Notes: generated from the sequence alone by a model not told the origin. 64,000 nt of DNA from an uncultured bacterium (GCA_965369655.1 CBDUQR010000002.1:33857-97856); one strand, 5' to 3'. Positions 3,769 to 35,592 are shown, numbered from the stretch's first letter. Translations and numbers: made by a program.

Positions 3769-3885
3769 TTCTATACAAGAGCGCGGTAATAGCTTCTACC
3801 CCTCCTATTTTATCACCGTCGTATCAAGGTGTACTGGTGCACCTGATTGCATCAGAACAACAAACAACTTCATAAGGAGGACGCC

Positions 3886-4722
3886 ATGAAGTGTTCGACC
3901 AGTATCATCCTGACAATCCTGCTGTCGATTTCGTTTATTGGCAGTACGGCATTGGCACAATTACCGGGGGACTGCAACGGATCTGGAGGAATCGACATCG
4001 ACGACGTGGTTTTAATCACATCCTACTTGTTGGAAGGGGACCAAGTTCCGACACCGGAATCAAGATCGAACTGTGACTGTGACAATAACCCTGGAATCTC
4101 GTTGGCTGATGCAGCGTTTATTATAGAAAGCATCTTCAATGGTCAGCAGTTGTTCCCGCCGACTGGCACAAAACTGACCAGGGGTTCCAGATCGACGATG
4201 TTCACAGGCGGACGGGCTACCGGGCTTCCGGGCATGGACAGGATAACTGTCCACATCGCAGTCGAGCCAAATGAAACCATCAACGGATTTCTGATACCGT
4301 TCTCTTACGCTTCACTGGCAGGCGACGCGGATATAAGCCTGACAAGCGTCGATTTTACGGGTTCCCTTCTTGAAGGATCGATAGTAGCGGTTATTGACGA
4401 TTCGAACAAGGTTCTCATGCTGTATGATGATCCACTTGCTCCGCCGAGTCTTACAGGGGGGACAATTGGACTTCTGGCCACTGTCTACTTCACCCAGAAT
4501 GCTCCCGGGAACGCTGTAGCGCTTCTCAAGACATCGACCGACAGGGTATCGCCGCTGCTCTTCCCGGAAGATTTTGTGAGTGATGATGGAGCACGGGTGC
4601 TTTATCCGGGCTTTGTCGAAAGGCCTATTGGCGATATTGACTGTTCATACTCCGTGGATATTGACGATGTTGTTGGAATGATAGGTTACATTTTTTCCGG
4701 CTTGCCGATCTGTTACTGGTAG
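3886..4722 (+). CDS. Secreted adaptor protein: N-terminal double dockerin-like repeat, cohesin-like beta-sandwich segment, C-terminal single dockerin-like repeat
   Basis: There is an AGGAGG RBS 7 nt upstream of ATG 3886 (the six-frame ORF start at 3847 lacks an RBS). A signal peptide is present (MKCSTSIILTILLSISFIGSTALA). Dockerin-like Ca-binding repeats are GDCNGSGGIDIDDVVLITSYLL, CDCDNNPGISLADAAFIIESIF and a third copy DIDCSYSVDIDDVVGMIGYIF. The central segment (RITVHIAVEPNETINGFLIPFSYASLAGDADISLTSVDFTGSLLEGSIVAVIDDSNKVLMLYDD) has the alternating hydrophobic pattern of cohesin modules. Confidence 0.6.
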   Translation: MKCSTSIILTILLSISFIGSTALAQLPGDCNGSGGIDIDDVVLITSYLLEGDQVPTPESRSNCDCDNNPGISLADAAFIIESIFNGQQLFPPTGTKLTRGSRSTMFTGGRATGLPGMDRITVHIAVEPNETINGFLIPFSYASLAGDADISLTSVDFTGSLLEGSIVAVIDDSNKVLMLYDDPLAPPSLTGGTIGLLATVYFTQNAPGNAVALLKTSTDRVSPLLFPEDFVSDDGARVLYPGFVERPIGDIDCSYSVDIDDVVGMIGYIFSGLPICYW

Positions 4723-15012: not shown

Positions 15013-15522
15013 GTATCTCGATATGTTCAAGCTAATCCTTTCATCAGTACAATGTTACGTCAATACTTGTATCGCACGATACCGCCGAATACTTGAATAG
15101 TCAATTAGAAAATCTTGACGATAATGTCGCGATGAGGGGTAGGTGGCTGCGACTACGTTTCTGCACTTAGTTTGAGCAGGTCACGTAACTCATTGTCCTG
15201 AAGTACGCTCATGGAAATAGTTGATCCAAGTTTTCTCTTGACACATTGCGTGTACCTGTTATATTGAGCATGTTGATTATGGTCCGCTCTCGGGGGATGG
15301 CGGATAGCGGCTGACTGACGGCCGCAGTTGTTCGTAATTACTCGCTTCGTCTGTACCCTTCGTCGAGTTGCATGTGCTTGAGGCTCGAAAGTTTTGTTCA
15401 AGAATACAATGTATGTAGGATTCCAAATTGCTGATAAGGAGGTGAAACAGCACAGGAGTTTATGTGGGGTTTGGTCTGAGGACCACACTTATTTTTTAAG
15501 ACTTGACAACAGGAGGATTTCA

Positions 15523-18500
15523 ATGAAATCTGCGAAATTCTTAGCAATCTTTGTGGTACTTGCGGTTCTCTTTGCCGTTCCTGCGTTCGCGCAGGATACT
15601 GGCGTTCTGGACACCGTCCGCTGGGTACCGGAGAGTACGACGTGGACGATCGATGCCGCAGGAGATTCGCTCTTCTCGATCGAGGTCTTTGGCTGGACGG
15701 ACCAGAGTATTACAGCTCTTTCACTCGGTTTCAAGATCCCGACGAGCTCCGGTGGCGGCACCGGTCATGATGATTCGCTGATAGTGGTTGATTCATTTAA
15801 TTTCACTATGTCGACGGGCTTTCCAGTACCATGGGCCTGGAGCGCGGTGGATTCAGCGCGCTTCGCAGATGATTTTCTACGGCACAGCTTGTACAATGGC
15901 ATCCTGCTCGGACGGATCATGCCGACCTTCCCTGCGAATACATCATCTAAGATTGGTGATCTGTTCATCAATATCCCTGATCCCACCTTGCTGCCATGTG
16001 AGTTCGACATAGCTATCGACTCGGTCTTTTTCCCGCCTGCTGGGGCTTTCAAGTTCTCTCCCTCTGGCGGCTCAGGCTACGCGCCTGAGTATGTAGGTGC
16101 GACAATTCATGTGGTGAACAATATCTGTATTCCTGATGAGGAACCGACAATTTACCTCAATCCGACAAGCTTTACATTTAACGCTGTCGAGAATGGTTCC
16201 AATCCGGTCGCGCAATCACTCAGTATCATTAATACAGGTTCTGGAACACTGAACTGGACAGCATCAGTTGATCAGACATGGTTGACTCTTGCCGCATACA
16301 GTGGTACAGGAGATGGTGCAGTAAATGTATTAGCTAATAGAGGTAGTTTGACTGCTGGCACTTACAATGGTACGGTGACAGTGTCTGATCCTGCGGCGAC
16401 GAATAATCCGCAGACAGCATCAGTGACATTTATCATTGCACCGGCTCCACCTGAGATCGTGCTCGATACGACGAGCTTTACGTTCGATGCAATTGAAGGT
16501 GGACCGAATCCGGATGATGATACTCTCTGGATCTCAAATGGCGGTGGTGGAACGCTCGACTGGTCGGTTGGCGATGATGCAACCTGGCTGACCACTACTC
16601 CCGTTGCGGGTACCGGAGACGGATACACCGTCCTGAGCGTGAATGTCTCAGGCCAGCAAGTCGGCACTCACGTTGCGACTGTTTTTGTCACCGATCCTGC
16701 CGCAAGCAATACTCCTCAGACGGTTGATGTTACACTGAATATTGTATGCGACCCATCTGAGATAGAGGTGACTCCGTTGAGTTTCACATTCGATGCTGTC
16801 GAAGGTGGACCGAATCCACCGGCACAGAATATGTTAATTGGAAGTAGTGGTTCTTGCGACGTCAATTGGACTGCAACGATTATAGCTGGATGGCTTTCAC
16901 TTTCTGAATATTCCGGAACTGCGGCGTCGAGTGTCGATATTTCTGTGGACATCTTGGGATTAGACGCCGGTACTTATGAAGATACTATCGTGATTTCACA
17001 CGATGGGATCAATGAAAGTCCCGTTAAAGTTCCAGTGACGCTGTATGTTAATTGCATTCCGGCAGAGTTGGAGACTTCACCATCGAGCTTCGCTTTTGAT
17101 GCTCAGGAGGATGGCGCAAATCCGACCCCGCAGATCCTGCACATTACAAATGGTGGGACTTGTGAACTATATTGGGGTGCAAGTAATTCTCAGCCCTGGC
17201 TCACGCTTTCTGATTACTCTGGAACTGGCCCCATTGATATCGATGTCATGGTTGATATAACCAGCATGACTGCTGGCGAGTACCACGATACGATTGTCGT
17301 ATTCGATGATGGCAGTCAAATTGACACCATACCTGTTGTGCTCACAATCGGTACAGAGCCGCTGTTGATGGTTGCGCCGAGCGAGCTCAATTTCACCGCT
17401 CCGGATGGCGGACCGAATCCTGCTTCTCAGGATGTTGATATTACATCGACCGACTCGCCTGATACGGAGCTTGAGTGGGTCGTTATTGAGCCTGGCAAGC
17501 CTATCGCCTGGTTGAGTTATGATCCGGCTTTGGGCACCACCCCTTCGGTTATGACTGTCAGTGTAAATATGGATGGGCTGTCTGCGGGTGTTTACAACGA
17601 CAGCATAATGCTTACGAAGAATGTTCCGGACAAGGACGATATCGGCGATACGGTGACTGTCTATGCTGAATTGACGGTTACTGGTGTTCCGGAAATCGAT
17701 CTGATTCCGAATTACTTCTTCTTCACCTGGGAAGAGGGTTCACCGATTGTTCCTGATGACCAGGATATGAATATCACCAACACAGGCTCCGGTACCCTGA
17801 ACTGGACTCTCTATGATACCGAGCTGATTGGCTGGCTTGATCCGTCGGCGTTTTCAGGTACCGCGCCATCGGTGGTGACACTTTCGATAGACACTGGTCC
17901 ATCACTTACAGCCGGCAACATATATGTTGACACGATTGTAGTTGAATGTGCTGATGCGATCAATCCGCTCGAGATTGCGATTGTCGAGCTTGAAGTGACC
18001 GAACCGCCGGTGCTTGACGACGACACGGTCTGGGTTGGAAATACAAGCGGACTTCCCGGCGAGCAGGTTATCGTTCCTGTGACTTTCGCCAACAGTGTAT
18101 ATCTGTCAGGCATCTCACTGCCGCTTATCTTTGACGATATGCTGGCGAAAATCGACAATGGTATTACCTGTGACTCGGTCTCGTTCATCGGGTCGAGGGT
18201 CGACTACATTGGCGCGAAGCCAGTCACGATTGACAATATCAACAAGACTGTACTGGCAGGTGTGATAGTTATTAGCGAGCCGCTAATTCCGGCAGGCAAC
18301 GGCCTGATGGCGAACCTGTATTTCTCGATCGCTCCGGGCGCCGCACCGGGAATCGTTCCGATAGACTCGACGTTTATCCTTCCTGCAAACGAACTGATGT
18401 TCGCTGACAGCCTTGGTGGCGCGATCTATCCGGAGTTCTTCTATGGAACAATTGAGATTCTCGAACCACCTTCGACGGCTTGCCTCGAGGTCAGCGATGG

Positions 18501-20562
18501 CTTCTTTGATTTCCAGGCGATTGTAAGCGGTCCGAATCCTTACGATCAGTACCTTGACATCATCAACTGTGGTGATGTGGAACTCAACTGGGATGCCTGG
18601 ACTCATGTAGGTACGTGGCTGAGCATCGATCCAACAACGGGAGTGGATGATGCAACGGTGACTCTCTCAGTCGATATTACAGGTCTTCCGGAAGGTGATT
18701 ACATCGATTCAATTACTGTTGATGCCGGTGATGCCGACAATTCACCGCAGTACGTACATGTTGACTTGCACGTTGGCCCGCCGTTGTCACAGTACATCTC
18801 AGGCGTCGTGCAGGATCCTGCCGACGTAGTGATTGACGGCGCGACTGTCGAGCTCTGGGATGTGTTCCCCACTGGTACCATCCTCGAGACGGCAACTTCA
18901 GCAGGCGATGGTTCGTTCATGTTCACTGGTTACACAGGTTATTATGTGGTCCGTGCGTACAAGAACGGTTACTATCAGAATTTCATGGATGTGACCGCGC
19001 CAGACGAGGCTGTTGTCATAGTCCTGACGCCGACTGGCACGCCAACTCCTACCAACGAGTGGGTGGATCTCTACTGTGACATGGCCATGTTCGAGGATTA
19101 TCCGATCCTCCCGGGTGATGTCGTAGAAGCTTACGATCCGGACGGTATTCTCTGCGGTCAGTATTTCGTCACCGAGATTGGCAAGTACGGCTTCATGCCG
19201 GTCTACCGCGACGACGACTTCACACCTGGTATCGACGAAGGTTGTGATCCGGGTGACGCGATCACGGTGATGCTCAACGGCTTCGATATGACTCCGTACC
19301 TCGGTGCTCCGTTATTCTGGACCCAGAATGGTGACAGGATCGAAGCATGCTTCGATGGTTACATCATCGACGAGATTTGCATGGATCTCTGCGAGGGTTG
19401 GAACCTGATCTCGTGGAATGTCGATACGGAAGTTGACGACATCGACGTCGTTATGCTTCCGATCATGGATTACATTGACGTCATGCTTGGATTCGAACAG
19501 GGTGCGTTGACGTTCGATCCCGATTATCCTGAGTTCTCTACGCTCGAGTTTGTCGACCACTACCACGGTTACTGGGTCAAGATGACTCAGGCTGCCGAGT
19601 TCTGCGTATCAGGTTTGCCGGTCGATCCATCGACGCCAATCTCTCTCGAAGAAGGCTGGAACCTTGCGTCCTATCTGCCTGATGGCGTTATGGCCACAGA
19701 GGAAGCTCTGGTTTCGATTCTTGACGTGCTGATCGTCGCTCTCGGATTCAACTGCGAAGAGGGCGGTATGGTGTACGATCCTGAGAATCCTGGCATGTCT
19801 GACCTCGAATTCCTTGGCCCAGGATTTGGATACTGGTACAAGGTCACTCAGGATGTCATGCTGACCTATCCGAGCGATGTTCCGTGGGCTGCGATGTTCT
19901 CCGGTGAGCCGGACAAGACATCGGCCAAGCTTGCCGTGCTGAAAGATGTTACTCCTACGACTCAGTGGGTGGATATCTTCGGCGGCAATGTCACGATTGA
20001 CGGTCGTGCGCTTGCAACCGGTTCGATCGTCGAGGCTGTCGATGAACACGGCGCCGTTTGTGGCGCGTTCGAGATCAAAGCCTCCGGCAGACTCGGTTTC
20101 ATGGCGGTCTATGGCGATGACATGACAACTTCAGATACGTACGAAGGTCCGACTACGGGCGGTACGTTTTACCTCGTGGTGGACGGCATCGCGACAGAGG
20201 AGACATTCGTGTGGACCGGGCACGGCGAGCGTGTCGAGATCGGCGCCCTGAGCTCTCTCGGTGGCGGCGGCGTAACGCTTCCGGATGCTTACGTACTGGA
20301 GCAGAACTATCCGAACCCGTTCAATCCGAAGACCAGCATCTCGTTCAGCGTCGGTAACGATGCTTATGTGAATCTGGTCGTATACAACCTTCTTGGCGAA
20401 GTTGTGAATGTTCTGGTCGATGAATTCAGAGCCGCCGGCGACTACACGGTCGACTGGAACGGTGACGACCTGAGCGGACGCACAGTCTCTTCCGGCGTCT
20501 ACTTCTACAAGCTGACGTCCGGCGACTATACTGAGACCAGGAAGATGATGTTGATGAAGTAA
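15523..20562 (+). CDS. Giant T9SS-sorted scaffoldin-like surface protein (1679 aa). It contains 7 BACON-type Ig repeats, a cohesin-like module, a CarboxypepD_reg-like domain, two novel ~77-aa W/CG repeats, two EGWNL repeats and a C-terminal T9SS sorting domain.
   Basis: There is an AGGAGGA RBS before ATG 15523 and a signal peptide (MKSAKFLAIFVVLAVLFAVPAFA). Seven repeats fit the BACON pattern SFTF(D/N)A.EGGPNP…LNW…WL…SGTGDG…AGTY…VTV…NPQT. The cohesin-like segment is VWVGNTSGLPGEQVIVPVTFANSVYLSGISLPLIFDD…NLYFSIAPGAAPGIVPID. The C-terminal YPNPFNPKTSISF…GVYFYKL…RKMMLMK is a T9SS C-terminal domain. Confidence 0.8.
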   Translation: MKSAKFLAIFVVLAVLFAVPAFAQDTGVLDTVRWVPESTTWTIDAAGDSLFSIEVFGWTDQSITALSLGFKIPTSSGGGTGHDDSLIVVDSFNFTMSTGFPVPWAWSAVDSARFADDFLRHSLYNGILLGRIMPTFPANTSSKIGDLFINIPDPTLLPCEFDIAIDSVFFPPAGAFKFSPSGGSGYAPEYVGATIHVVNNICIPDEEPTIYLNPTSFTFNAVENGSNPVAQSLSIINTGSGTLNWTASVDQTWLTLAAYSGTGDGAVNVLANRGSLTAGTYNGTVTVSDPAATNNPQTASVTFIIAPAPPEIVLDTTSFTFDAIEGGPNPDDDTLWISNGGGGTLDWSVGDDATWLTTTPVAGTGDGYTVLSVNVSGQQVGTHVATVFVTDPAASNTPQTVDVTLNIVCDPSEIEVTPLSFTFDAVEGGPNPPAQNMLIGSSGSCDVNWTATIIAGWLSLSEYSGTAASSVDISVDILGLDAGTYEDTIVISHDGINESPVKVPVTLYVNCIPAELETSPSSFAFDAQEDGANPTPQILHITNGGTCELYWGASNSQPWLTLSDYSGTGPIDIDVMVDITSMTAGEYHDTIVVFDDGSQIDTIPVVLTIGTEPLLMVAPSELNFTAPDGGPNPASQDVDITSTDSPDTELEWVVIEPGKPIAWLSYDPALGTTPSVMTVSVNMDGLSAGVYNDSIMLTKNVPDKDDIGDTVTVYAELTVTGVPEIDLIPNYFFFTWEEGSPIVPDDQDMNITNTGSGTLNWTLYDTELIGWLDPSAFSGTAPSVVTLSIDTGPSLTAGNIYVDTIVVECADAINPLEIAIVELEVTEPPVLDDDTVWVGNTSGLPGEQVIVPVTFANSVYLSGISLPLIFDDMLAKIDNGITCDSVSFIGSRVDYIGAKPVTIDNINKTVLAGVIVISEPLIPAGNGLMANLYFSIAPGAAPGIVPIDSTFILPANELMFADSLGGAIYPEFFYGTIEILEPPSTACLEVSDGFFDFQAIVSGPNPYDQYLDIINCGDVELNWDAWTHVGTWLSIDPTTGVDDATVTLSVDITGLPEGDYIDSITVDAGDADNSPQYVHVDLHVGPPLSQYISGVVQDPADVVIDGATVELWDVFPTGTILETATSAGDGSFMFTGYTGYYVVRAYKNGYYQNFMDVTAPDEAVVIVLTPTGTPTPTNEWVDLYCDMAMFEDYPILPGDVVEAYDPDGILCGQYFVTEIGKYGFMPVYRDDDFTPGIDEGCDPGDAITVMLNGFDMTPYLGAPLFWTQNGDRIEACFDGYIIDEICMDLCEGWNLISWNVDTEVDDIDVVMLPIMDYIDVMLGFEQGALTFDPDYPEFSTLEFVDHYHGYWVKMTQAAEFCVSGLPVDPSTPISLEEGWNLASYLPDGVMATEEALVSILDVLIVALGFNCEEGGMVYDPENPGMSDLEFLGPGFGYWYKVTQDVMLTYPSDVPWAAMFSGEPDKTSAKLAVLKDVTPTTQWVDIFGGNVTIDGRALATGSIVEAVDEHGAVCGAFEIKASGRLGFMAVYGDDMTTSDTYEGPTTGGTFYLVVDGIATEETFVWTGHGERVEIGALSSLGGGGVTLPDAYVLEQNYPNPFNPKTSISFSVGNDAYVNLVVYNLLGEVVNVLVDEFRAAGDYTVDWNGDDLSGRTVSSGVYFYKLTSGDYTETRKMMLMK

Positions 20563-20619: not shown

Positions 20620-21669
20620 TTGAAGAAATTCAAACGTAATATCGCGAGGCTGTTACCTCTCTTGTTGTTGTCAGTCCTTATGGCGTCATCCGCAAGCGCT
20701 CAGGTAATTCCGACAGACCAGTGGGTGCATTTCTGGAGCCCGAGTTCGACCTTAAATGGACAGCCGCTGCCGATTGGAGCGATTGTTGACACATATGATC
20801 CGGACGGCGTACATTGCGGTCGGTTCATCGTCCATACTACCGGTCAGTACGGTTACCTTTCAGTTTACCATGATGATAGTTACACGCCGGGTGTCGATGA
20901 GGGTGCGCTTTCCGGCGATACGATCACAATCATGGTAAATGGCGTACTGGCAGATGTTCTTGGTCCTGACGATCCCGAGTGGACGTTCAACTTCGCATTT
21001 CTGAACATCGACCTGGGCGTTCTGATCAATCTTGCGCTCGAGTTGACTACTCCACTTGACGACGTGGGAGCGCCAAACGGTTTCGTCGATTACACGTACA
21101 AGGTGAAGAATACCGGTGAGGGGATCGATTTCTTCAACCTCGAAGCTGTTTCATCCGGTGGATGGACAGTCGAAATTCTCGGCGGCGACGCCACAGGCTA
21201 CCTGAATCCGGGGGAGGAGACAGATGTAGTCGTGCGAGTCCATGTACCAGGCACTGCCCAGGATGGCGATACCGATGATCTGACTCTGACCGCCAGTTCA
21301 GCTATGGATGCCACCGTATCTGAGAGCGGTACAGTGACGACCTCGGTGATCGAAAGCGCCGCAGGGGATCCCTATGATCCTCTCATTCCGGGCGTGTTTC
21401 ATCTTCGCCAGAACTTCCCGAATCCGTTTAATCCTGTGACGACAATCGAGTTCTCGATCGAAAAGGCGATGGACGTCGAGTTGATCGTTTACAACGTTAT
21501 CGGGCAGGAGGTCAAAACGCTGGCCAACCGTCATCTGGAGATAGGCATGCATCAGTTCGAATGGGATGCCACAGATGAGAGTGGACAGAAAGTTGCAAGC
21601 GGAATCTACTTCTATCGACTTATCACTGATGAGTACGCGAGAACGCGCAAAATGATGCTGATGAAATAA
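20620..21669 (+). CDS. T9SS C-terminal-domain secreted protein (349 aa) sharing the W/CG repeat with the scaffoldin
   Basis: The start is TTG with a GGAGGTG RBS. It has a signal peptide and one copy of the W/CG domain (DQWVHFWSP…PDGVHCGRFIV…YGYLSVYHDD…TIMVNGV). Its T9SS C-terminal domain (FPNPFNPVTTIEFS…GIYFYRL…RKMMLMK) is near-identical in pattern to that of the scaffoldin. Confidence 0.75.
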   Translation: MKKFKRNIARLLPLLLLSVLMASSASAQVIPTDQWVHFWSPSSTLNGQPLPIGAIVDTYDPDGVHCGRFIVHTTGQYGYLSVYHDDSYTPGVDEGALSGDTITIMVNGVLADVLGPDDPEWTFNFAFLNIDLGVLINLALELTTPLDDVGAPNGFVDYTYKVKNTGEGIDFFNLEAVSSGGWTVEILGGDATGYLNPGEETDVVVRVHVPGTAQDGDTDDLTLTASSAMDATVSESGTVTTSVIESAAGDPYDPLIPGVFHLRQNFPNPFNPVTTIEFSIEKAMDVELIVYNVIGQEVKTLANRHLEIGMHQFEWDATDESGQKVASGIYFYRLITDEYARTRKMMLMK

Positions 21670-26109: not shown

Positions 26110-27168
26110 ATGAAAGTTGAGATCATTGGAAAGACCGACGTGGGATTGCAGCGTGATGCGAATGAGGATTCGTTCGGCATTCTCGAATCCAAACGCCTGG
26201 CTGTCGTGTGTGACGGTATGGGCGGTCATGCAGCTGGCGAAGTTGCTTCGCGCTGCGCGGTAGATACATTACTGAGTCTGTACAAAGGCGCCGAGATTCC
26301 GGATGCTGCAGGCGACGCATTCGAATTGTCACCCGAACTGAGCGAGGAGGCTCGATTCCTCGTTTCTTCCGTACGAATCGCGAATACACGCACATATCTG
26401 ATGTCGGAGGCGGACCCGCGACTTGCGGGCATGGGTACGACTATTGTCGCAGCCGTATTCAGCGGCGGATCGATCACGATTAGTCATGTCGGAGATTCGC
26501 GAGCCTACCGGATCAGGAAAAACAGTCTGAGCCAACTGACCGTGGATCACTCGCTCGTGAGTGAGTTGCTGGCGTCAGGACGGATCACTCAGGAGAAAGC
26601 AGGGGAGTATCCTAATCGCAACATTATCACGCGAGCGCTCGGTGTCAGGGAACGAGTCAGGGTTGACGTACGCGAGCAATGTGTCGAGGCTGGTGATCTC
26701 TTTCTTCTATGCAGTGACGGCCTGACGGGAATGGTGAAAGAGACGGAGATTCTTCGCATAATCACTGACAGCGATGGCGACCTCGATACGATGGCCGACA
26801 GGCTGATTGCCGCCGCCAATGAGGGAGGCGGTGGGGATAACATTACGTGCGTTCTCGCTCGTGTGACCAGTGTCACGGAAAAGGACGTGCATGATGTGGA
26901 AATGACAACTCTGACGGTGCCGGAGGAGAGGGACTCGGAGCTTGCCGCTCAACGTATTGTGAGTGATGCGCTGGAGTCGATGCCCGAGGGCATGGCTGGG
27001 AATTCGTCCGGCGCAGATGACGCCGATTCTGCTCCTCCGAAGTCTCGCAGGTTCCCCGGCCTTCTGATAATCTGTCTGGTGGCCGCAGTGGCGCTGATTC
27101 TGCTGGCGTTTGTGGCCGATGTTACCGGTACGCGTGAGGCATTGTCCCGAATGTTCGGTCTCAATTGA
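26110..27168 (+). CDS. PP2C-family Ser/Thr protein phosphatase with C-terminal TM anchor
   Basis: PP2C motifs are present (EIIGKTDVGLQRDANEDSF…AVVCDGMGGHAAGEVAS…LLCSDGLTGMV…GGGDNITCVL). A hydrophobic helix (FPGLLIICLVAAVALILLAFV) lies near the C-terminus. Confidence 0.8.
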   Translation: MKVEIIGKTDVGLQRDANEDSFGILESKRLAVVCDGMGGHAAGEVASRCAVDTLLSLYKGAEIPDAAGDAFELSPELSEEARFLVSSVRIANTRTYLMSEADPRLAGMGTTIVAAVFSGGSITISHVGDSRAYRIRKNSLSQLTVDHSLVSELLASGRITQEKAGEYPNRNIITRALGVRERVRVDVREQCVEAGDLFLLCSDGLTGMVKETEILRIITDSDGDLDTMADRLIAAANEGGGGDNITCVLARVTSVTEKDVHDVEMTTLTVPEERDSELAAQRIVSDALESMPEGMAGNSSGADDADSAPPKSRRFPGLLIICLVAAVALILLAFVADVTGTREALSRMFGLN

Positions 27169-27251
27169 CCCTTAAATCCATCAAGAATGAATGCCTGAAT
27201 TGATCTCCGGATCAGTTTGTCTTCCCAGTATAGAAGTGTCCGGATAAAGCA

Positions 27252-27282
27252 AAAGGAGCGACCCGTTAGGGCCGCTCCTTTG
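27252..27282 (-). terminator. Rho-independent terminator of 27332-30541 (this copy has one stem mismatch)
   Basis: The plus strand reads AAAAGGAGCGACCCGTTAGGGCCGCTCC. On the minus strand the hairpin is followed by a T-tract. The terminator of the paralogue (30847-30878) has the same sequence. Confidence 0.5.
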
Positions 27283-27331
27283 ATTTACTCAGCCTGATAC
27301 AGTCAGTATCAGAGCCGTAGTGGACATGTTA

Positions 27332-30300
27332 TTAGCAGCAGGCAGCCGGATCGGGCGCTGGTCCTCCACCGAAGATGTAGTTGATCAGATACACTACATC
27401 ATCGATGTCGATACCGCCCAAACCGTTGGCATCACCGCAACAGATATGATCCACAGGCTCTGGTCCGCCACCGAAGATATAGTTGATCAGATACACCACA
27501 TCATCGATGTCGACACCACCAGAACCGTTAGCATCGCCCGAAACGCAATCGGACACAGGCTCACAACCCGGACAGTCAATGTTAGCACAGATCCAGGTCT
27601 TACCCTTATCGATGAGATTTTGCAGATCTGAAAGGCCTGTAAGGCTCGAGGCCTTCACCTTGCAGTATACGACGCACTCCTCTGCTGCAAGTGTGAGATC
27701 CTGAGCGATGACGTACACCGAATTGAGGTCCTCTACTGAATCCGAGGCGAGAAATCCGGTATGTGTAGCCAACAGATTGCCTATTTCGGCAGGTACATAA
27801 CCGGAGTTATCATACACCCAGGTGTCGTTTTCGAGGACGATGGCACCAACGATATCACCACAGAAGGATGCGCCGCCATAGTAGTCCTCGTAAGGCGAAC
27901 TGCCGGCGGGACCATACTGGTAGACCATCTGTCTGTCTTCATCGACTCCGGACTGGTTGTCACTGCCGTCTTCGCCGTCCGGTATATCCCAGTCGATACC
28001 TTCACCGAGATGGATGGTGATAGCGGCATCGGTGTTGTTGCAGACTTCAACGCGCTCGATCAGTACACAGACATCCGGGTGCTTCGGCACGTACCACTCA
28101 ATCACACCGGTGATGGCTGAGTCTGGAGTAGCCCACTCGCCGTGAGCGTAGTCGTAGTTGACATCATCCACAAGTATCAGCGAGTCTAAAGCGACGAAGC
28201 TGACTTTGCTGTTGGAGCCGTCGAACATCGAGAAGAATGTCTGAGAGACGTCGTCAGCATATGTCACGATGATACCCTCGTCGTACATTGGCGCGAACTC
28301 TTCGAGGAACCAGAACATATTGCCGAGATCACTGCGTTGAGCAACACCGGCTCTCGGGACGTTCCAGACGCCGATAGACCAGCAAGCGGTCGACAGAATT
28401 TCGTATTCCGGCGGGAAGTACTTACAGGCGACCAGAAGGTTGACAGGAATGTCGACTTGATCGGAACCTTCAGTACTGGTCAGACTGACACTCACGTTAC
28501 CGATTTCGGCGGTTTCGTTGGCCACCGGGCCAACGTCCACGGTGATAGTGGCTACGGTATTGATACCAGCCGTCACCGTACCGGTACCGCCGGTGATGCT
28601 CATCCAGCTTTCAGTTTCGCTTACAATGTAGCCGATCTCGACGTTACCGGTGTTGACGATAACGACATCAAACGACGTCGTAGTCGGCATCGTGCAGTCG
28701 GTACCGCTCGTGGGAGAGATTATCACAGACTGGTCCTCAGGAGCGACCGAATAGCTGAAAATGGCTTCCGGAGTGAAGCATGGGTACGTGGCGTAGAGAA
28801 CCTCGTTCTCGGTTTCTTCTCCCTCATCGTGAACGAACGAGCCAGCGTCATGGTCGCTGACGTAGAAGAGGTGCAGTACACCAGACGAGTATTTGGCCAT
28901 CGATCCGAAGTTCTCGTTGTGGCATGCACCGGCCACACAGCCGTCGGAGTATGTATTGGTCAGGTTGACATAAGTGCCGAGCTTGACCGGGACGCCGCTG
29001 CCAGCGGTCGTCAGTGTGTCGAATTCGTCCAGGGTGCCGTCGGGACCCCATGTGATGCCGCCATCGCTCGATGCAGTCAGGCAGAATTCGCCGTTTGCAT
29101 AACCATTTGCGGAGCAATCACCGTTGTTGTCACCACGGGGCCAGGTTCCAAAACGAGTAAACGAAACGTACATGTTGCCGTCGCATTCGGAGATGTTGAT
29201 TCTGGAAATGGCGCCGAGACCACCACCGATACCGCCGCTGCAGAATCCAGTCGGGGAGGTAGCGTCGAGAACGCGCGATATGACGTTGCTGGACTGATCC
29301 CAGTGCCACATATTGCCGCGGAACAGCGGCTGGCAAGGATCATCTTCTCTGAAATCAGGAGTCAGCCAAATGATGTGAAGGTCCCCGTCAGAGTCGTAGA
29401 CGGCTGATATTTCCGATTGAGCCTTGTGCACAAAATTGATGGGGTCAAGTGTTCCTCCCTCGGTGTAGTCAGTGATGTTGACTTCCGAACCCCAGGTGGC
29501 GCCGCCGTCAGTCGATTCCATGTAGACTATGTCGTGTTGTACCCACTGGAAGTTATTGAGATCGCCGGCAGGGTTGCCATCGCCATCACAACTGTTTCTC
29601 GGGTCACCCTGCTCGTAGAAAGGTTTGCACCAGATGAGGGCCACGTCGTCCGATGTCGGAGCGGGATCAGAGCGAACAGTAGCATTGACCGTATGGGAAG
29701 CATCGATGTAGAGGCCGAGCGTGTCGGTAGAGGTACCGGGGCACTCAGCGAGATCACCGTCAATATACCGATAGTAGATGATCGATTGTATCGACTCGTC
29801 AGGAAGAGCCACCGGCGGCGACTCGGTTGAGACTATGTGCAGTATCTCTTCGCCGGTTGTCAGTTTCTGGAACTCACCTACCGGCCAAATGTATGCATCA
29901 CCTTCATTTGTGCCGGACATTTCTCCCTGGCAGTTCGGTGGACCCGGCGCCCAGCGACTCACGTCAGGAAGGGCTTGAGGAAAGTAGCCGGACGGTGGCA
30001 TCATATCTATGCCCGACCTTGTGGAATAGAGCGCCGAACCCGGGCCTGCATGCCAGAATCCGACCGCAACACCGGCGTCGGTGACGTCAATAGTGGTATA
30101 TCCGCCATTGTTGGCAGATGCTGAATTCCCGGTGTGGCCCCACACCCATGCGCTGGGAGTAGTGATTTTGCGAGAGTTGTAATATATTCTCCGAAAACCG
30201 CTATGATCAGTCGGATGGCCTCTCATCCAGAGAAAGTGAACATATTCCAAACCGCTACCCTGGAAGTTCGGCGTGTAAGCGATCTGCCTCCCCATCGTGC

Positions 30301-30541
30301 CGTTTTTTTGATATTCGTAGTAGGTCACGCCGACTGTGTCGCCGATTGGATTCTGACGCGAAGCAGCGCCTGAAGGGCCGAGCCTCGGGCCGCTCGGTGT
30401 GTCATCACCGGCGATGCTCTTGTAAGGTTTCATCTTGTAGGACTGGCTGGTGGCGTCATCGACATTGGCGATGGCCGAACCCGCAAAGATCAAGAGTGTG
30501 ATCATCGCGATAGCCAGTACAAAATTCTTGCTGGAAATCAT
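27332..30541 (-). CDS. Secreted BNR-repeat (sialidase-like beta-propeller) protein with a C-terminal tandem dockerin-type repeat; paralogue A, 1069 aa
   Basis: It has a signal peptide (MISSKNFVLAIAMITLLIFAGSAIA). BNR motifs are present (STDGGATWGS, SSDGGITWGPDG). The C-terminus is GDANGSGGVDIDDVVYLINYIFGGGPEP…GDANGLGGIDIDDVVYLINYIFGGGPAP, two canonical dockerin Ca-binding segments. It is about 80% identical to 30915-34154 over the C-terminal third. Confidence 0.8.
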   Translation of the reverse strand: MISSKNFVLAIAMITLLIFAGSAIANVDDATSQSYKMKPYKSIAGDDTPSGPRLGPSGAASRQNPIGDTVGVTYYEYQKNGTMGRQIAYTPNFQGSGLEYVHFLWMRGHPTDHSGFRRIYYNSRKITTPSAWVWGHTGNSASANNGGYTTIDVTDAGVAVGFWHAGPGSALYSTRSGIDMMPPSGYFPQALPDVSRWAPGPPNCQGEMSGTNEGDAYIWPVGEFQKLTTGEEILHIVSTESPPVALPDESIQSIIYYRYIDGDLAECPGTSTDTLGLYIDASHTVNATVRSDPAPTSDDVALIWCKPFYEQGDPRNSCDGDGNPAGDLNNFQWVQHDIVYMESTDGGATWGSEVNITDYTEGGTLDPINFVHKAQSEISAVYDSDGDLHIIWLTPDFREDDPCQPLFRGNMWHWDQSSNVISRVLDATSPTGFCSGGIGGGLGAISRINISECDGNMYVSFTRFGTWPRGDNNGDCSANGYANGEFCLTASSDGGITWGPDGTLDEFDTLTTAGSGVPVKLGTYVNLTNTYSDGCVAGACHNENFGSMAKYSSGVLHLFYVSDHDAGSFVHDEGEETENEVLYATYPCFTPEAIFSYSVAPEDQSVIISPTSGTDCTMPTTTSFDVVIVNTGNVEIGYIVSETESWMSITGGTGTVTAGINTVATITVDVGPVANETAEIGNVSVSLTSTEGSDQVDIPVNLLVACKYFPPEYEILSTACWSIGVWNVPRAGVAQRSDLGNMFWFLEEFAPMYDEGIIVTYADDVSQTFFSMFDGSNSKVSFVALDSLILVDDVNYDYAHGEWATPDSAITGVIEWYVPKHPDVCVLIERVEVCNNTDAAITIHLGEGIDWDIPDGEDGSDNQSGVDEDRQMVYQYGPAGSSPYEDYYGGASFCGDIVGAIVLENDTWVYDNSGYVPAEIGNLLATHTGFLASDSVEDLNSVYVIAQDLTLAAEECVVYCKVKASSLTGLSDLQNLIDKGKTWICANIDCPGCEPVSDCVSGDANGSGGVDIDDVVYLINYIFGGGPEPVDHICCGDANGLGGIDIDDVVYLINYIFGGGPAPDPAACC

Positions 30542-30846
30542 AGCTTCTTTCCCTCTGTTGAAGTGAAAAGTTACTTACTTTCATAACATCGACTCCGGCG
30601 ACTTAATTCATCACCGGAACTGATTGAGGATTAAGATTCCTCGGGGCAATCTCTGATCCGATTGAACATATTCCCTCCTCTGTTACAAACAGTTTGGCGT
30701 ACTTAAGAGAGCGGTGAGTATTCTTCTACTATTAGTATAATAATTGCAACTGCTTACAAGTCAAGACAAAAAGAACATCACAGGGGAGCGGTTGCGGCGT
30801 GTGCTCAGTGGGCGGTGCGCTGGGGACAGGCCTGTTTCCAGGCAGT

Positions 30847-30878
30847 GAAAAAAAGGAGCGGCCTGTTAGGGCCGCTCC
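30847..30878 (-). terminator. Rho-independent terminator of 30915-34154
   Basis: GGAGCGGCC-TGTTA-GGGCCGCTCC is a perfect 9-bp stem. It is preceded on the plus strand by an A8 run, which is a T8 run after the hairpin on the minus strand. Confidence 0.55.
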
Positions 30879-30914
30879 CATTTGGTCTTCATCTGTTGCC
30901 TGATTCGAAATCAA

Positions 30915-33900
30915 CTAACAGATATCAACGGGCGGAGGTCCTCCACCGAAGATGTAGTTAATCAGGTAGACTACGTCATCGATGTCGACGCCACCAGAAC
31001 CATTTGCGTCGCCGCAGCAATTATCCTGCACAGGCGGAGGTCCGCCACCGAAGATGTAGTTAATCAGATAGACTACGTCATCGATGTCGACACCGCCACT
31101 GCCGTTTGCGTCACCAGGCACGCAGTCGGGGCCACTGCTAACACAGCCGGGACAGTCGATTTCCGGTGTGTCGGCGATGAATTCCTTGCCCTTATCGATG
31201 AGATTCTGCAGATCCAAAAGGCTTGTAAGGCTCGAGGCCTTCACCTTGCAGAACGTGGTGCAGGCCTGTGCATCGAGGGTAAGATTCTGAGCGATGACGT
31301 ACACCGAATTGAGGTCCTCGGCTGGGTCCGGATTTGGGGCGACAAATCCGGTATGTGTAGCCAGCAGATTACCTATGTCGGCAGGTATGTAACCGGAGTT
31401 CGGATACACCCAGACATCGTTTTCGAGGACGATGGTACCGACGATGTCAACGCAGAAGGATGCACCACCGTGGTAGTCCTCGTAAGGCGAACTGCCAGTG
31501 GGACCATGCTGGTAGACCATCTGTCTGTCGGTATCGACTCCGCAATTGTTGTCAGATCCATCATCTCCATCCGGGAAGTCCCAGTCGATACCTTCACCGA
31601 GATGGATGGTGATAGCAGCATCAGAGTTGTTGCAGACTACGACGCGCTCGATCAGCACACAGTACACCGGGTGCTTCGGCGTGTACCAGTCGATAGTGCC
31701 GGTGATGACAGAGTCCGGAGTGGCCCACAGGCCATTGGCCTGTTCATAGGTGGAATGGTCTGTAACAGTCAATGGTCCCATGGCTATGAAGCTGGCATCA
31801 CTGTCAGAGCCGTCGAACATCGAGAAGAATGTCTGAGAGACATCCTCAGCGTATGTCAAGATGAGACCCTCGTCATACATCGGAGCAACATCCTCGACAA
31901 ACCACCACATGTTGCCCTCGTCATTTCTCTGAGCGAGTCCGGCTCTCGGAACGTTCCAGACGCCGACTGACCAGCAGTGTGTCGAGATCAGGGCATATTC
32001 GGGCACATAGTACAGGCACTCGACATGCGCCGTGACATCAACCACAATTCCCGATGCACTGCCAGCGGAGCTGGTCAGGTCGATTGTTACCGTCCCAGGG
32101 TATTCGCCCTCGGCCCCGATCGGACCAACTGTCATGACGACATCAGCCGTTGGATTGATGCCGGCAGTGATTGTACCACTACCGGAAGCAGGATTCAACC
32201 ATGACTGGTCGGATGTGAACGTATAGTTGATCGGAACGTTTCCTGCGTTCGTGATCGTAATAGTGAAGTCGTCGGTGTATTCGATAGTACAGTCGGGTAC
32301 GCCATTCGGTGCGATCGGCACGAACGCGCTTGATGGATCAACTCTGTAATCGAACGTACCTTCCGGCTCGAAGCACGGATATGTCATGTACATATATGCG
32401 TTATTTGTGTATTCACCTTCCGCATCCACAACGACGGCTGCGCCGGGATGGTTGTCGTCAATGTACGCGATATGTACGACGTCGGTCGAGTACTTGGCCA
32501 TGCTTGACCAGTGTTCGCTGTGGCAATCGCCAGCCACGCAATCGTCAGTGCGAGTGTTGGTCACGTTGACTGCCGTGCCAGTTTTCACTGCGGTACCTGT
32601 TCCTCCGGTCGTGAGGTAGTCGTATGGAGGAGCGGCAGCGTCCGGACCCCACGTGATACCACCGTCGCTGGAACCTGTCAGGAAGATGTCACCGTTGAGA
32701 AACATCAGATCCGAGTAGTCTCCACCAACACTGTCATGAATAACCATGGCAGGGTCCATTGTTGTGTCAGGATGAGCGCCGAAACGGGTGAACGAAACAT
32801 AGAGCCTCTCGTCACACTCGGAGATATTCGGCTTGCTGGTCATTATGTTCCACACACCGGTGTTCGAGAAAGTACCACCGGGTCCTCTGAAGAGGAAGGG
32901 CATCGTGGCGTCGTAGACCGGGGTGATTTCCTGGTTGAAATCATCCCAATGCCACATCATGGTGGTATAGTAGCTTCCTTCACACGCACCGGCAGCGGGC
33001 CATACCGGAGTATTCCAGACAATGTGCAGTGTGCCGAGATGGTCATACAGCGCAGTCACATCTGTATACGCCATGTACTTGATCTCACTGATCGCGAGAG
33101 TGCCGCCGTCTGAGTAATTGGTGATGTTGGTCGGTGTCGCATCCCAGGTCACGCCGCCATCATTGGATTCGAAGTAAGCGACGTCGTGCTGCCACTGTGT
33201 GTACTCGCAATCATTATTGGGATGGTTAGGATCAGGATACATATCCTTTAGATACACGATGGCGACCTTATCCGAACCCGGGTCGGATCGGACTACCGGG
33301 GTGATGTTCTGGTCCTCGGTCATCCAGCGACCGAGAGTATCCGTAGATGTACCCGTGCACTCGTCCGTGGTATCGTTCACAATACGGTAATAGATGAAAG
33401 ACTGTATCGTGGCTGCCGGGGGTATAGGATCCCCACCCGGGTTCTCGGTGGATATGACGTGATAGACGTCATTTCCGTCGACATTGTCATACTCTATGAC
33501 CGGCCAGAGGTATTCGCTTTCCAACTCATAACCATCCTCACCTTCGCCCTCGCAGTTTGGCGGAGCCGGTTGCTGAAGCTTGGAGAACGGGGTGTTCGGC
33601 GGCATTAGGTCCTTGCCAGCATATGTGAAGTAAAAACCGGCGAGGCCCTCATGCCAGGAGGCGATTGCGGCGCCTTCGCTATTGACGTCGATTGTCGTAT
33701 ATCCGCCATTAGCGCCGGAGAATGATGTGCCGGCGTTATCATCGCCGTGCCTGTGAATCCATGCCTGCGGGGCACTCAACTTTCTTGCGTTGTAACGGAT
33801 ATACCTTGTCGCGCCAGGGGCGTTCCTCCACATCCAGACAAAGTGAATATATGGATGCCCATTTAGATCTGGGGTGTAAGCAATCTGTCTGCCCATTGAG

Positions 33901-34154
33901 CCGTTGTGCTGGAAGTCGTAGTATGTCAAACCTGCGGTATCACCGGGAGGCTGGGGGACAGGGCCGAAGCGTGACGGGCCGAAACGCGGCACGTCAGCGC
34001 CGATAAGTTCATCGGATCCGCCAGTTACAGCCTGAGGGGTCAATTGGCTCTCTGGACGGACGTTACTGATTTCACTTTCGATTGCCATCGCAGGTGCGGC
34101 AAGCATAAGCAGGATCGCCACCGCAAGGCAAAAGACTTTTGAATTTTCTGTCAT
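30915..34154 (-). CDS. Secreted BNR-repeat beta-propeller protein with a C-terminal tandem dockerin-type repeat; paralogue B, 1079 aa
   Basis: The start is set at MTENSKVF, with a GGAGAGG RBS. It has a signal peptide and BNR motifs (SNDGGVTWDA, SSDGGITWGPDA). The C-terminus is GDANGSGGVDIDDVVYLINYIFGGGPPP repeated twice. Confidence 0.8.
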   Translation of the reverse strand: MTENSKVFCLAVAILLMLAAPAMAIESEISNVRPESQLTPQAVTGGSDELIGADVPRFGPSRFGPVPQPPGDTAGLTYYDFQHNGSMGRQIAYTPDLNGHPYIHFVWMWRNAPGATRYIRYNARKLSAPQAWIHRHGDDNAGTSFSGANGGYTTIDVNSEGAAIASWHEGLAGFYFTYAGKDLMPPNTPFSKLQQPAPPNCEGEGEDGYELESEYLWPVIEYDNVDGNDVYHVISTENPGGDPIPPAATIQSFIYYRIVNDTTDECTGTSTDTLGRWMTEDQNITPVVRSDPGSDKVAIVYLKDMYPDPNHPNNDCEYTQWQHDVAYFESNDGGVTWDATPTNITNYSDGGTLAISEIKYMAYTDVTALYDHLGTLHIVWNTPVWPAAGACEGSYYTTMMWHWDDFNQEITPVYDATMPFLFRGPGGTFSNTGVWNIMTSKPNISECDERLYVSFTRFGAHPDTTMDPAMVIHDSVGGDYSDLMFLNGDIFLTGSSDGGITWGPDAAAPPYDYLTTGGTGTAVKTGTAVNVTNTRTDDCVAGDCHSEHWSSMAKYSTDVVHIAYIDDNHPGAAVVVDAEGEYTNNAYMYMTYPCFEPEGTFDYRVDPSSAFVPIAPNGVPDCTIEYTDDFTITITNAGNVPINYTFTSDQSWLNPASGSGTITAGINPTADVVMTVGPIGAEGEYPGTVTIDLTSSAGSASGIVVDVTAHVECLYYVPEYALISTHCWSVGVWNVPRAGLAQRNDEGNMWWFVEDVAPMYDEGLILTYAEDVSQTFFSMFDGSDSDASFIAMGPLTVTDHSTYEQANGLWATPDSVITGTIDWYTPKHPVYCVLIERVVVCNNSDAAITIHLGEGIDWDFPDGDDGSDNNCGVDTDRQMVYQHGPTGSSPYEDYHGGASFCVDIVGTIVLENDVWVYPNSGYIPADIGNLLATHTGFVAPNPDPAEDLNSVYVIAQNLTLDAQACTTFCKVKASSLTSLLDLQNLIDKGKEFIADTPEIDCPGCVSSGPDCVPGDANGSGGVDIDDVVYLINYIFGGGPPPVQDNCCGDANGSGGVDIDDVVYLINYIFGGGPPPVDIC

Positions 34155-34527
34155 TGTTCTACCTCTCCTCAAGGTTTCATCACTGGTGTTGCGCGTGATG
34201 TTGGTTCAAAGTAAGAGAAAGCCTCTAACATAAGTTGCTGTTTCAAATTCGTTAGAAGCTAAGTCGAAGTACCGGCATGCGTCCTCCTATTATGTTTTGT
34301 GTTCCGGGTCAATTGTAGTATTCAACAATACTATTTAAAGAAGAAGCTCTGCTCATGTTTAGATTAATAGACACGGCCATGAAAGTCAAGGCAAAAAACA
34401 CAATTGTTTGCCCAAAAAAAACGTGACGGAAGCTTTCGATGGCGTTTTGGGACTGACTTCCAGGACCGATATCTGGCCGGATGAACCGGCGCAATAATTG
34501 CGAAAGTACGCCGTGCAGAAGATATTG

Positions 34528-35592
34528 TCAACCTCTGTATCCACCTTCGAGCAGGTTCCCGATCGGTCGCAGCGGTTCGATATGATCGCAAATAACCTTG
34601 AAACCTGCCGTGATGGGCATCGCCAGTATGATTCCGACTCCACCCCAGAGCCAGCCCCAGTAGACCGTTGCGATCAGGACTGATGTCAGATTGATGTTAA
34701 TGCGGTCGCCGACCAGTTTCGGGGTTATGATGTTTCCTTCAAGGAACTGCAATACGAGAAAGAATATCCCGACATACATCAGCCACCACATCGACTGGTT
34801 CTCGATAGATGCAACTATCATGGGCGGGATCGCCCCCATGACCGCGCCGATGTAGGGGATCAGATTCAACGCTCCGGCGAGCGGTCCCCACACATACGCA
34901 TACGGCACGCCCATTATCAGCAGTCCGATGGTTACGACAACCGCAAGGGCAGTCGTCGTGGCGAATTTCACAGCCATGAATCCGGAGATATTACTCGATA
35001 TTTTGTCGACTATCTGCCTCGATGCGTCACTGTGCTCGCTTCCGAACAGGTTGGCCAGCTTGTCCTTGAATCCTTCCTGTTCGATCAGCACGAACGAAGT
35101 CATCAACAGCACAAGAATGGTCTTCCATAGAATGGAAAATGCAGACCCGAGTCCCGCGAAGAAGTATCTCGATATAGATGTGATTTCGCTGAACTTGATG
35201 TCTTGCAGTGGATTGATCGTCCCGTCCGAGACGTCTCCCGGAAGGTACTGTGCCAGCGACGGGAACTGATCGAGCCAGGTTGAGAGCTGTTTCTGGAATC
35301 CGGTCCAGTACTGCGGGAATTTGACGACCAGTTCACCTGCCTGGGATGCTATCAGGGCGGCGATGCTGAGGAACAGTATGAGAGTTGTCAGTACCACGAT
35401 TATGACTGCCGCCACACGTGGGAGCTTGAGTCTCATCAGCAGCTTGACAACCGGATTGAGAATGAACGCGAAGGCTATTCCGAGCAGGACCGGCAGGAGT
35501 ATCGGCTTCGCGTAGTACAGAAACACCGACATAATCATCAGCGATATGATCGGTATGGCAATTGACTGTATCTTGATAATTCGCTGTTCCAT
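34528..35592 (-). CDS. AI-2E family transporter (PerM-like permease)
   Basis: The 354-aa protein has 8 predicted TM helices. The family pattern is present (…PILLPVLLGIAFAFILNPVV…GLLIMGVPYAYVWGPLAGALNLIPYIGA…). Confidence 0.8.
   Translation of the reverse strand: MEQRIIKIQSIAIPIISLMIMSVFLYYAKPILLPVLLGIAFAFILNPVVKLLMRLKLPRVAAVIIVVLTTLILFLSIAALIASQAGELVVKFPQYWTGFQKQLSTWLDQFPSLAQYLPGDVSDGTINPLQDIKFSEITSISRYFFAGLGSAFSILWKTILVLLMTSFVLIEQEGFKDKLANLFGSEHSDASRQIVDKISSNISGFMAVKFATTTALAVVVTIGLLIMGVPYAYVWGPLAGALNLIPYIGAVMGAIPPMIVASIENQSMWWLMYVGIFFLVLQFLEGNIITPKLVGDRININLTSVLIATVYWGWLWGGVGIILAMPITAGFKVICDHIEPLRPIGNLLEGGYRG

Follow-up and report, generated by a model that had tools for sequence, protein, structure and literature searches.

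The window analysed here is a 64,000-nucleotide stretch of DNA from an uncultured Zixibacteria bacterium (GCA_965369655.1 CBDUQR010000002.1:33857-97856; GC content 52-54%), which carries on its minus strand two adjacent genes, gene 1 and gene 2, encoding proteins of the same five-part architecture: a Sec-type signal peptide at the N-terminus, a seven-bladed Asp-box propeller, an immunoglobulin (Ig)/BACON-like domain, a beta-supersandwich and a two-segment dockerin. Homologues of both genes are named almost solely from metagenome-assembled genomes (MAGs) of Candidatus Zixibacteria. The genes and their domains are the following.

27332-30541, minus strand: gene 1, open reading frame (ORF) of 1069 residues, lineage alpha (see below), exact database match P0001
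30915-34154, minus strand: gene 2, 1079 residues, lineage beta, exact database match P0004
28757-30355, minus strand: gene 1 propeller, residues ~63-595, seven blades, Asp-boxes STDGGATW (residue 343) and SSDGGITW (residue 491)
28427-28756, minus strand: gene 1 Ig-like (BACON_2-like) linker, residues 596-705, Pfam BACON_2 E-value 6e-4, below the cut-off, all-beta in the model
27572-28426, minus strand: gene 1 pre-dockerin domain, residues 706-990, galactose-mutarotase-like beta-supersandwich in the model, motif GEGIDWDIPD
31152-32036, minus strand: gene 2 pre-dockerin supersandwich, residues ~707-1001, phmmer envelope, 74-75% identical to the gene 1 domain
27353-27559, minus strand: gene 1 dockerin, two 34-residue segments (GDANGSGGVDIDDVVYLINYIFGGGP / GDANGLGGIDIDDVVYLINYIFGGGP), Pfam Dockerin_1 19.8 bits, two helices in the model
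30930-31124, minus strand: gene 2 dockerin, two segments, Pfam Dockerin_1 26.7 bits

The full-length AlphaFold2 model of the gene 1 product, with a predicted local distance difference test (pLDDT) score of 84, places about 28 strands in residues 63-595, followed by an Ig domain made up of strands only, then a large beta domain and, last, the two helices of the dockerin. For gene 2, a mechanical ORF list gave 30915-34172 on the minus strand, with a TTG start at 34172; the ATG at 34154, preceded by GAGGAGAGG, agrees with the 1079 residues of P0004. The original prediction, made from the sequence alone, had described two tandem minus-strand paralogues with dockerin tails, each with its own AT-rich upstream region and ribosome-binding site. 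Both points are borne out, by the reading frames and a full-length identity of 53% in BLASTP, and by 373-nt intergenic regions of 43-46% GC against 54% in the genes. The two database matches are found on contigs of up to 116 kb. The same gene order is present in an independent assembly (ENA ERZ25746585 NODE_951, L003, 17.3 kb), which reads LigA, AI-2E transporter, 1079-residue gene, 1069-residue gene and PP2C, and is 99.98% identical to the window (4 mismatches in 17.3 kb).

The resemblance between the two copies differs strongly from region to region. In a codon-aligned sliding window the propellers share 48-49% of their amino acids, with saturated synonymous divergence (dS; proportion of synonymous differences, pS, 0.74), and the Ig-like domains share 38%, with dS again saturated. 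The pre-dockerin domains reach 74-75%, with a dS of 0.59 overall and 0.3-0.5 for residues 809-988, and the dockerins 84%, with a dS of about 1.1; the copies thus agree at about 75-84% over the last ~350 residues, and the identity of about 80% at first estimated for the last ~330 residues was roughly right. The pairwise alignment and the ratio of nonsynonymous to synonymous divergence (dN/dS) that had been proposed as a check were both obtained, and since the ratio lies at about 0.1-0.5 in all windows with estimable dS, both copies are under purifying selection.

Neighbour-joining trees with 200 bootstraps were built region by region, for the propeller, the Ig domain and residues 719-985. Genes 1 and 2 are sisters in none of the 200 bootstraps for the propeller and in none of the 200 for the Ig domain. 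Gene 1 groups with P0002, P0003 and P0006 in the propeller tree and gene 2 with P0007, while in the Ig tree gene 2 groups with P0008, the partners of each copy coming from other Zixibacteria MAGs; in propeller identity, gene 1 is nearer to P0002 of another MAG (56%) than to its own neighbour (48%). For residues 719-985 the two genes become sisters in 159 of 200 bootstraps and are placed beside the beta-type P0007. A six-protein comparison separates three lineages, alpha (gene 1, P0003, P0002 and P0006), beta (gene 2, P0008 and P0007) and gamma (a 1075-residue gene and P0009, whose propellers are 68% identical).

Other Zixibacteria MAGs also carry members of the family in tandem. In locus L086 (GCA_018820315.1; 6001-12827) LigA and AI-2E are followed by P0008 and the 1075-residue gene and then, on the other strand, by isocitrate dehydrogenase (IsoDH) and PorV. 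The window has the same left flank, and by its position behind LigA and AI-2E gene 2 is the orthologue of P0008. Two more assemblies, L087 (515-7387) and L088 (492-7364), carry P0009 and P0003, again followed by IsoDH and PorV on the opposite strand. The pairings seen are thus beta-alpha, beta-gamma and gamma-alpha, and they plausibly go back to an ancestral array of three genes from which different members were lost. Trees and gene order together indicate that the duplication would predate the split of several Zixibacteria lineages and that the array is probably old rather than freshly duplicated.

Against this background, the 3' part of the two genes in the window stands out, and the candidate tract can be delimited as follows.

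27352-28384 in gene 1, partner 30929-31976 in gene 2, minus strand: putative homogenised (gene-conversion) tract, blastn alignment of 1054 bp at 79% and nothing further 5', sub-blocks at 80-86%

Array neighbours share 75% of their supersandwich residues in the window genome as compared with 54% and 52% in the other arrays, and dS is 0.3-0.6 for residues ~720-990 and saturated upstream; because of this excess identity and the local drop in dS, we propose that about 1 kb underwent gene conversion in this lineage only. Such an event, in the window genome alone, would have homogenised the supersandwich-coding part and left a mosaic, in which the copies differ on the 5' side and resemble each other on the 3' side. 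The position of the pair in the tree suggests the beta copy as donor and the alpha copy as recipient. The mosaic identity profile, the local dS drop and the region-specific switch in topology are those of concerted evolution by partial gene conversion in tandem paralogues, of which this gene pair is an ordinary example, with no difference to report. The dockerins are most alike within each genome (84-85%), which fits either a shared binding partner or repeated homogenisation.

Both genes carry similar signals at their two ends.

27251-27278 (hairpin 27255-27278), minus strand: gene 1 intrinsic terminator, GGAGCGGCCC-TAAC-GGGTCGCTCC and TTTT, -24.0 kcal/mol
30851-30878 (hairpin 30855-30878), minus strand: gene 2 intrinsic terminator, GGAGCGGCC-CTAACA-GGCCGCTCC and TTTTTTT, -21.6 kcal/mol
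30737-30764, minus strand: gene 1 promoter-like site, TTGACT-16-TATTAT within the conserved TTTTTGTCTTGACTT
34361-34389, minus strand: gene 2 promoter-like site, TTGACT-17-TAATCT within TTTTTGCCTTGACTT
30631-30669, minus strand: gene 1 leader mini-ORF, Shine-Dalgarno (SD) sequence GGAGGG, ATG, peptide MFNRIRDCPEES and stop
34252-34278, minus strand: gene 2 leader mini-ORF, SD sequence AGGAGG, ATG, peptide MPVLRLSF and stop

The hairpins lie 37-54 nt past the gene ends and are the sole two such sites in the 64 kb, where none is expected by chance. A GGAGCG(G)...(C)CGCTCC stem with a T-tract is found 29-60 nt past the stop codon in 10 of 12 family genes, drawn from each of the three lineages and from six assemblies or more, with variable upper stem and loop; in 687 kb of related loci the stem motif is confined to these positions, and the more distant family members have unrelated terminators. 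The presence of a terminator hairpin with T-tract behind each gene, as first described, is therefore confirmed, but its use as the mark of a duplicated unit is not, since it also lies downstream of orthologues in other genomes. A metagenome scan (L089-L168) returned at least 120 copies of GGAGCGGCC-N3-7-GGCCGCTCCTTT on unrelated contigs, including some from the human gut, and none of the hairpins listed adjoins or lies downstream of a dockerin gene; a special function of this sequence was rejected on these grounds in favour of a generic terminator type. We read the hairpin as an inherited strong terminator held by selection and not as a special element.

On the upstream side, a promoter-like element, TTTTTGNCTTGACTT, is common to both 373-nt regions. 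The leaders of the family share a layout in which a -35 box, CTTGACT, stands 220-257 nt upstream of the start and is followed by a strong SD sequence (GGAGG), a start codon and an ORF of 4-12 codons at -118 to -166. This layout is present in 10 of 12 genes across the three lineages (window, L001, L002, L005, L085, L086 and L087), and the mini-ORF peptides are unrelated to each other. It presumably compares with mRNA-stabilising SD elements or leader peptides, a matter of resemblance only; a scan of 27000-34700 with Rfam gave one chance-level match and nothing at the leaders. Hairpin and leader appear to be family-wide features and not by-products of duplication, and each gene would form its own transcription unit, in a packaging kept across the family, with the CTTGACT -35 box, a leader of ~190 nt with SD and mini-ORF, and the GGAGCG-stem terminator.

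The original prediction had taken gene plus terminator as the duplicated unit; on this reading the duplication would be recent, with the N-terminal half diverging rapidly, by subfunctionalisation, and the C-terminal cargo staying constrained. Adjacent and co-oriented genes of one architecture, C-terminal parts 74-84% identical and 22 of 24 hairpin bases common to both terminators all agree with such an event, yet the copies come from different old lineages and never appear as sisters in the propeller and Ig trees, orthologous arrays occupy the LigA/AI-2E locus of other MAGs, and neighbours in those arrays share just 52-54% in the supersandwich. Moreover, it is dS, and not dN alone, that falls in the 3' part, which protein constraint cannot explain, and the hairpin is equally kept in orthologues elsewhere, that of L006 being 22/24 identical to the hairpin of gene 2. 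A simple duplication of this kind is highly improbable, and the claim has to be given up. An assembly artefact, with one gene misassembled as two or a chimera formed across the dockerin-coding repeats, is scarcely credible. It was suggested by dockerin-coding stretches described as near-identical, and the repeats do exist, as does the ~1 kb of similarity between the copies; the description was overstated, however, since the dockerin segments are 102-nt direct repeats whose identity is 80% for gene 1 and 88% for gene 2. The DNA of the two copies is only 79-86% identical and cannot be aligned over the 5' two thirds, the tandem layout recurs in other MAGs, and both ORFs are intact and under purifying selection. 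As the copies share just ~1 kb at 79% and the independent assembly agrees in arrangement, collapse or chimerism is very unlikely. An old array with a lineage-specific conversion accounts better for the gene pair, and it is on this footing that its proteins are considered below.

The domain preceding the dockerin was said in the original prediction to match nothing recognisable. At the level of sequence this stands: searches against Pfam, NCBIfam and the sequences of the Protein Data Bank (PDB) gave nothing meaningful, a word-index protein search with the domain alone returned 12 fragments only, and 172 representative relatives were collected at E<=1e-3 among 1.84 billion cluster representatives. 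The structure prediction that had been suggested as a check tells otherwise of the fold. The model of residues 700-990 (pLDDT 94.4; predicted template modelling score, pTM, 0.92) matches solved members of the galactose-mutarotase-like supersandwich fold, the best matches being the non-catalytic N-domains of glycoside hydrolase (GH) families GH94, GH15 and GH65, at 5-13% sequence identity; dextran dextrinase, cyclic glucan synthase, GH116 and GH65 are also listed as fold relatives. As modelled, the domain adopts a fold common among carbohydrate enzymes, and its sequences form a new family, so that its novelty is reduced but not removed.

In an alignment of 36 sequences the invariant and near-invariant columns are D108, G147, D151 and G178, together with G33, D55, D65, Y97, P120, W152, D153, Y175, N206, G215, D239 and G270. 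GalM-type aldose 1-epimerases have a conserved catalytic His/His/Glu. No His or Glu is found among the conserved columns of these 36 sequences, unlike in mutarotases, a statement that concerns sequence conservation only, and membership of the aldose 1-epimerases therefore appears not to apply. Likewise, no (alpha/alpha)6 barrel follows the supersandwich in the model, where the dockerin begins within ~10 residues, and the domain was not assigned to the GH94, GH15 or GH65 enzymes, which have that catalytic barrel. It shares the galactose-mutarotase-like fold with the N-domains of GH94 phosphorylases and bacterial GH15 glucoamylase/glucodextranase (4zle, 2cqs, 1v7v, 1lf6, 1ulv), and differs from them in its low identity (6-13%), in occurring without a following barrel, either alone or after a propeller and joined directly to a dockerin, and in its own conserved motif, GEGIDWDIPD; no Pfam, NCBIfam or PDB sequence profile detects the domain.

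The propeller is barely detected by Pfam, whose BNR and BNR_4 matches fall below the cut-off; BNR_2 (PF13088) has no match in either window protein and matches two distant relatives only. BACON_2, in the linker, matches 15 of 37 family members, with a best E-value of 1.3e-7. The top Foldseek match of the propeller is the three-module sialidase of Micromonospora viridifaciens (E 4.5e-14, a multi-domain match with a low template modelling (TM) score), followed by other sialidases. The large form of this enzyme (propeller, Ig linker and galactose-binding module; 1eut/1wcq) is among the closest known systems, together with the Asp-box propeller enzymes GH143 (5mum) and the polysaccharide lyases PL42 (7esk) and PL25 (5uam). 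GH33 sialidases are six-bladed propellers with an Arg triad and a Tyr/Glu nucleophile pair. Compared with the sialidases and Asp-box enzymes, the window proteins have about seven blades in the model and only two canonical Asp-boxes each; the TM values of the fold matches are low (0.17-0.28), so that the domain arrangement differs, and identity is 7-14%. In addition, the C-terminal module is a supersandwich and not a CBM32 jelly-roll.

Dockerins were recognised as two tandem segments of ~22 residues, each made up of a helix and, before it, an EF-hand-like loop of the form D-x-N-x-[DNS]-G-x-[IV]-x-x-x-D. As originally noted, two such segments close each protein, in which DANGSGGVDIDD and VVYLINYIF occur twice, with helices at residues 1012-1024 and 1046-1058 of the model. 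With respect to the Dockerin_1 (PF00404) cut-off of 22.9 bits, gene 2 lies above and gene 1 just below; the family matches in 12 of 37 members (best E 3.9e-12), and the family profile matches the solved dockerins 5lxv_B (E 0.002) and 4dh2_B (E 0.008) across both segments. Similarly to the type I dockerins of cellulosomes, these are duplicated Ca-loop and helix segments at the C-terminus of signal-peptide-bearing proteins, but they are Cys-rich (CPGC, CC and a C-terminal C), have GGGPxP after each helix and score at the borderline in Pfam. Dockerin-tagged enzymes and a cohesin scaffoldin have been inferred in the Cloacimonadota, which also belong to the Fibrobacteres-Chlorobi-Bacteroidetes (FCB) group (PMC8542988). 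The cellulosome-like system of Ca. Stygibacter, a member of that phylum, resembles the present one in being that of an FCB-group diderm with the tag on many exoenzymes, peptidases included (PMC8542988), and differs in that no cohesin or scaffoldin was found for the window proteins. Our literature search found nothing linking Zixibacteria with dockerins.

Elsewhere in the window, 3847-4722 on the plus strand encodes a small secreted protein with a signal peptide, a two-segment dockerin (Pfam 26.7 bits), a beta-rich region of ~150 residues and a C-terminal dockerin-like segment, for which just 6 homologues were found. Five long family members (P0016, P0019, P0027, P0051 and P0080; 1560-1750 residues) have 530-720 residues beyond the first dockerin and a second dockerin at the end, and the insert has no Pfam match. 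To the eye, the small protein resembles a cohesin, as do the extensions of P0016, P0019 and P0027; Pfam, phmmer and PDB profiles detect only dockerins in them, and in BLASTP of the small protein against P0016 the dockerin segments alone align.

The supersandwich and the dockerin travel together. Almost all of the 174 family proteins in which the end of the domain is present have a dockerin-like tail within ~10 residues of it; 121 were counted with a regular expression and the other 50 were read by eye, most having two dockerin-like segments and about six none. About two dozen members continue for more than 150 residues past the domain, the longest for about 1000. At the other side, the domain starts within the first 60 residues in 37 members, some of which may be truncated fragments, and the supersandwich also follows other N-termini, namely BNR/photosystem II (PSII)-factor-like modules with TSP3 repeats (P0036 and P0039). 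The propeller in turn occurs with other partners, a type IX secretion system (T9SS) C-terminal domain in P0035 and P0037 and a C11 peptidase with dockerin in P0028. Judged by these combinations, the supersandwich-dockerin pair behaves as one module. A genome scan located the cassette in MAGs of Zixibacteria, Ignavibacteriales, Calditrichota, GN15 and other FCB-group bacteria.

In one Zixibacteria MAG, Dive96_bin4.201 (JAJRZO01; L038-L081), at least 25 more loci match the dockerin only, with DIDDVVYLINYIFGGGP. Seven of these were scanned, and comprise five peptidases (one C1, one M1, two S8 and one C10), one BNR_2 protein and one with TSP_3/He_PIG only. Given these loci and the seven that were scanned, the dockerin is probably a general tag of exported enzymes in the phylum, and to judge from the seven in this one MAG, the set that it marks would be mainly proteolytic. 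TSP3 and He_PIG spacers recur among the dockerin-only proteins of the same MAG.

T9SS sorting domains (PF18962 / TIGR04183) have no match in either of the two proteins. Two other proteins of the window, encoded at 15394-20562 and 20620-21669 on the plus strand, have T9SS C-terminal sorting domains, one of them with 1722 residues and four BACON_2 repeats; both kinds of tag, T9SS and dockerin, are therefore in use in one genome. A 1396-residue hybrid sensor kinase with CHASE, multiple PAS, HisKA/HATPase and receiver domains is encoded at 7549-11739 on the minus strand and has no evident link to the gene pair.

Two other views of what these proteins do have to be weighed. It is conceivable, although doubtful, that the supersandwich is itself catalytic, representing a new glycoside hydrolase, lyase or epimerase-like family on the mutarotase fold, with the propeller as a targeting module. 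The domain occurs alone between signal peptide and dockerin, has invariant acidic and aromatic residues (D108, D151, W152, D153 and Y175), and occupies a post-propeller slot that can hold a catalytic domain, as the C11 peptidase of P0028 illustrates. On the other hand its best structural matches, at so low an identity, are N-domains that are non-catalytic, and it lacks their (alpha/alpha)6 partner and any His or Glu column kept as in mutarotases, while the acidic loop DWDIPDGxDGSDN might just as well bind Ca2+. The tail, with the preceding helix and the Cys-rich linker, might instead be an export, sorting or outer-membrane attachment signal and no ligand of a cohesin, in the role that the T9SS C-terminal domain has in relatives. 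The replacement of Ig, supersandwich and dockerin by that domain behind the same propeller in P0035 and P0037, the T9SS substrates in the window, PorV beside the array in L086 and L087, the occurrence of the tag on many unrelated exoenzymes and the lack of a cohesin in window and family members speak for this signal, which we nevertheless hold to be rather improbable. The tail has two canonical EF-hand-like loops with helices and matches both Dockerin_1 and solved cellulosomal dockerins, the likeness of dockerins within a genome agrees with their having co-evolved with one common partner, the Cloacimonadota, another FCB phylum, are reported to have a cohesin scaffoldin, and the absence of a cohesin concerns 64 kb and sequence methods alone.

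The reading that we favour, and consider somewhat better than evenly supported, is that genes 1 and 2 are two members, alpha and beta, of an old Zixibacteria tandem array with a lineage-specific gene conversion of ~1 kb, and that they encode what are likely glycan-directed, dockerin-tethered surface proteins. After export by the Sec pathway, as the signal peptides predict, the propeller and/or the supersandwich would bind or cleave a glycan, the Ca-type dockerin would tether the protein to a surface partner, and the proteins would belong to an exported, dockerin-tagged enzyme repertoire, which in related MAGs also contains many peptidases. Glycan-directed surface proteins are what the combined domains most likely suggest. 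Several points weigh against this reading. The direction and the exact limits of the conversion depend on neighbour-joining trees with 80% support, and the tract may end before the dockerin region, where dS is higher (~1.1). Neither the 64-kb window nor the family members yielded a cohesin to Pfam or a PDB profile, and the delivery of a cargo to a scaffold, as put forward in the original prediction, is a conjecture. The analysis revealed no substrate, catalytic residues or binding site of the proteins, and their genomic neighbours offer no functional hint, the loci of single-copy relatives (L001 and L002) being likewise uninformative.

A wider picture can be drawn, although we put it forward as a tentative and rather unlikely one. 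Zixibacteria and some Ignavibacteriales and Calditrichota might run a diderm dockerin-based surface display, in which the supersandwich would be a new glycan-binding or catalytic family fixed with the dockerin, the beta/gamma/alpha array, with its leader mini-ORF and conserved terminator stem, would be a co-regulated and possibly hetero-oligomeric core, and the cohesin-like modules of ORF 3847-4722, P0016 and P0019 would be the partners.

In functional terms the proteins combine known kinds, an Asp-box propeller, a mutarotase-like carbohydrate-type fold and dockerin tagging, with an unnamed domain family. The idea of a recent duplication with a mystery cargo is replaced by a conserved array of several paralogues, one lineage-specific conversion and a known fold without a sequence family. 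The practical value of these findings is modest until the ligand and the cohesin partner are known. The supersandwich, with its 172 representative relatives that are almost always fused to a dockerin, nonetheless lends itself well to description as a new Pfam or CAZy-type family, and these results suggest that an uncultured diderm phylum exports a set of enzymes marked with dockerins.

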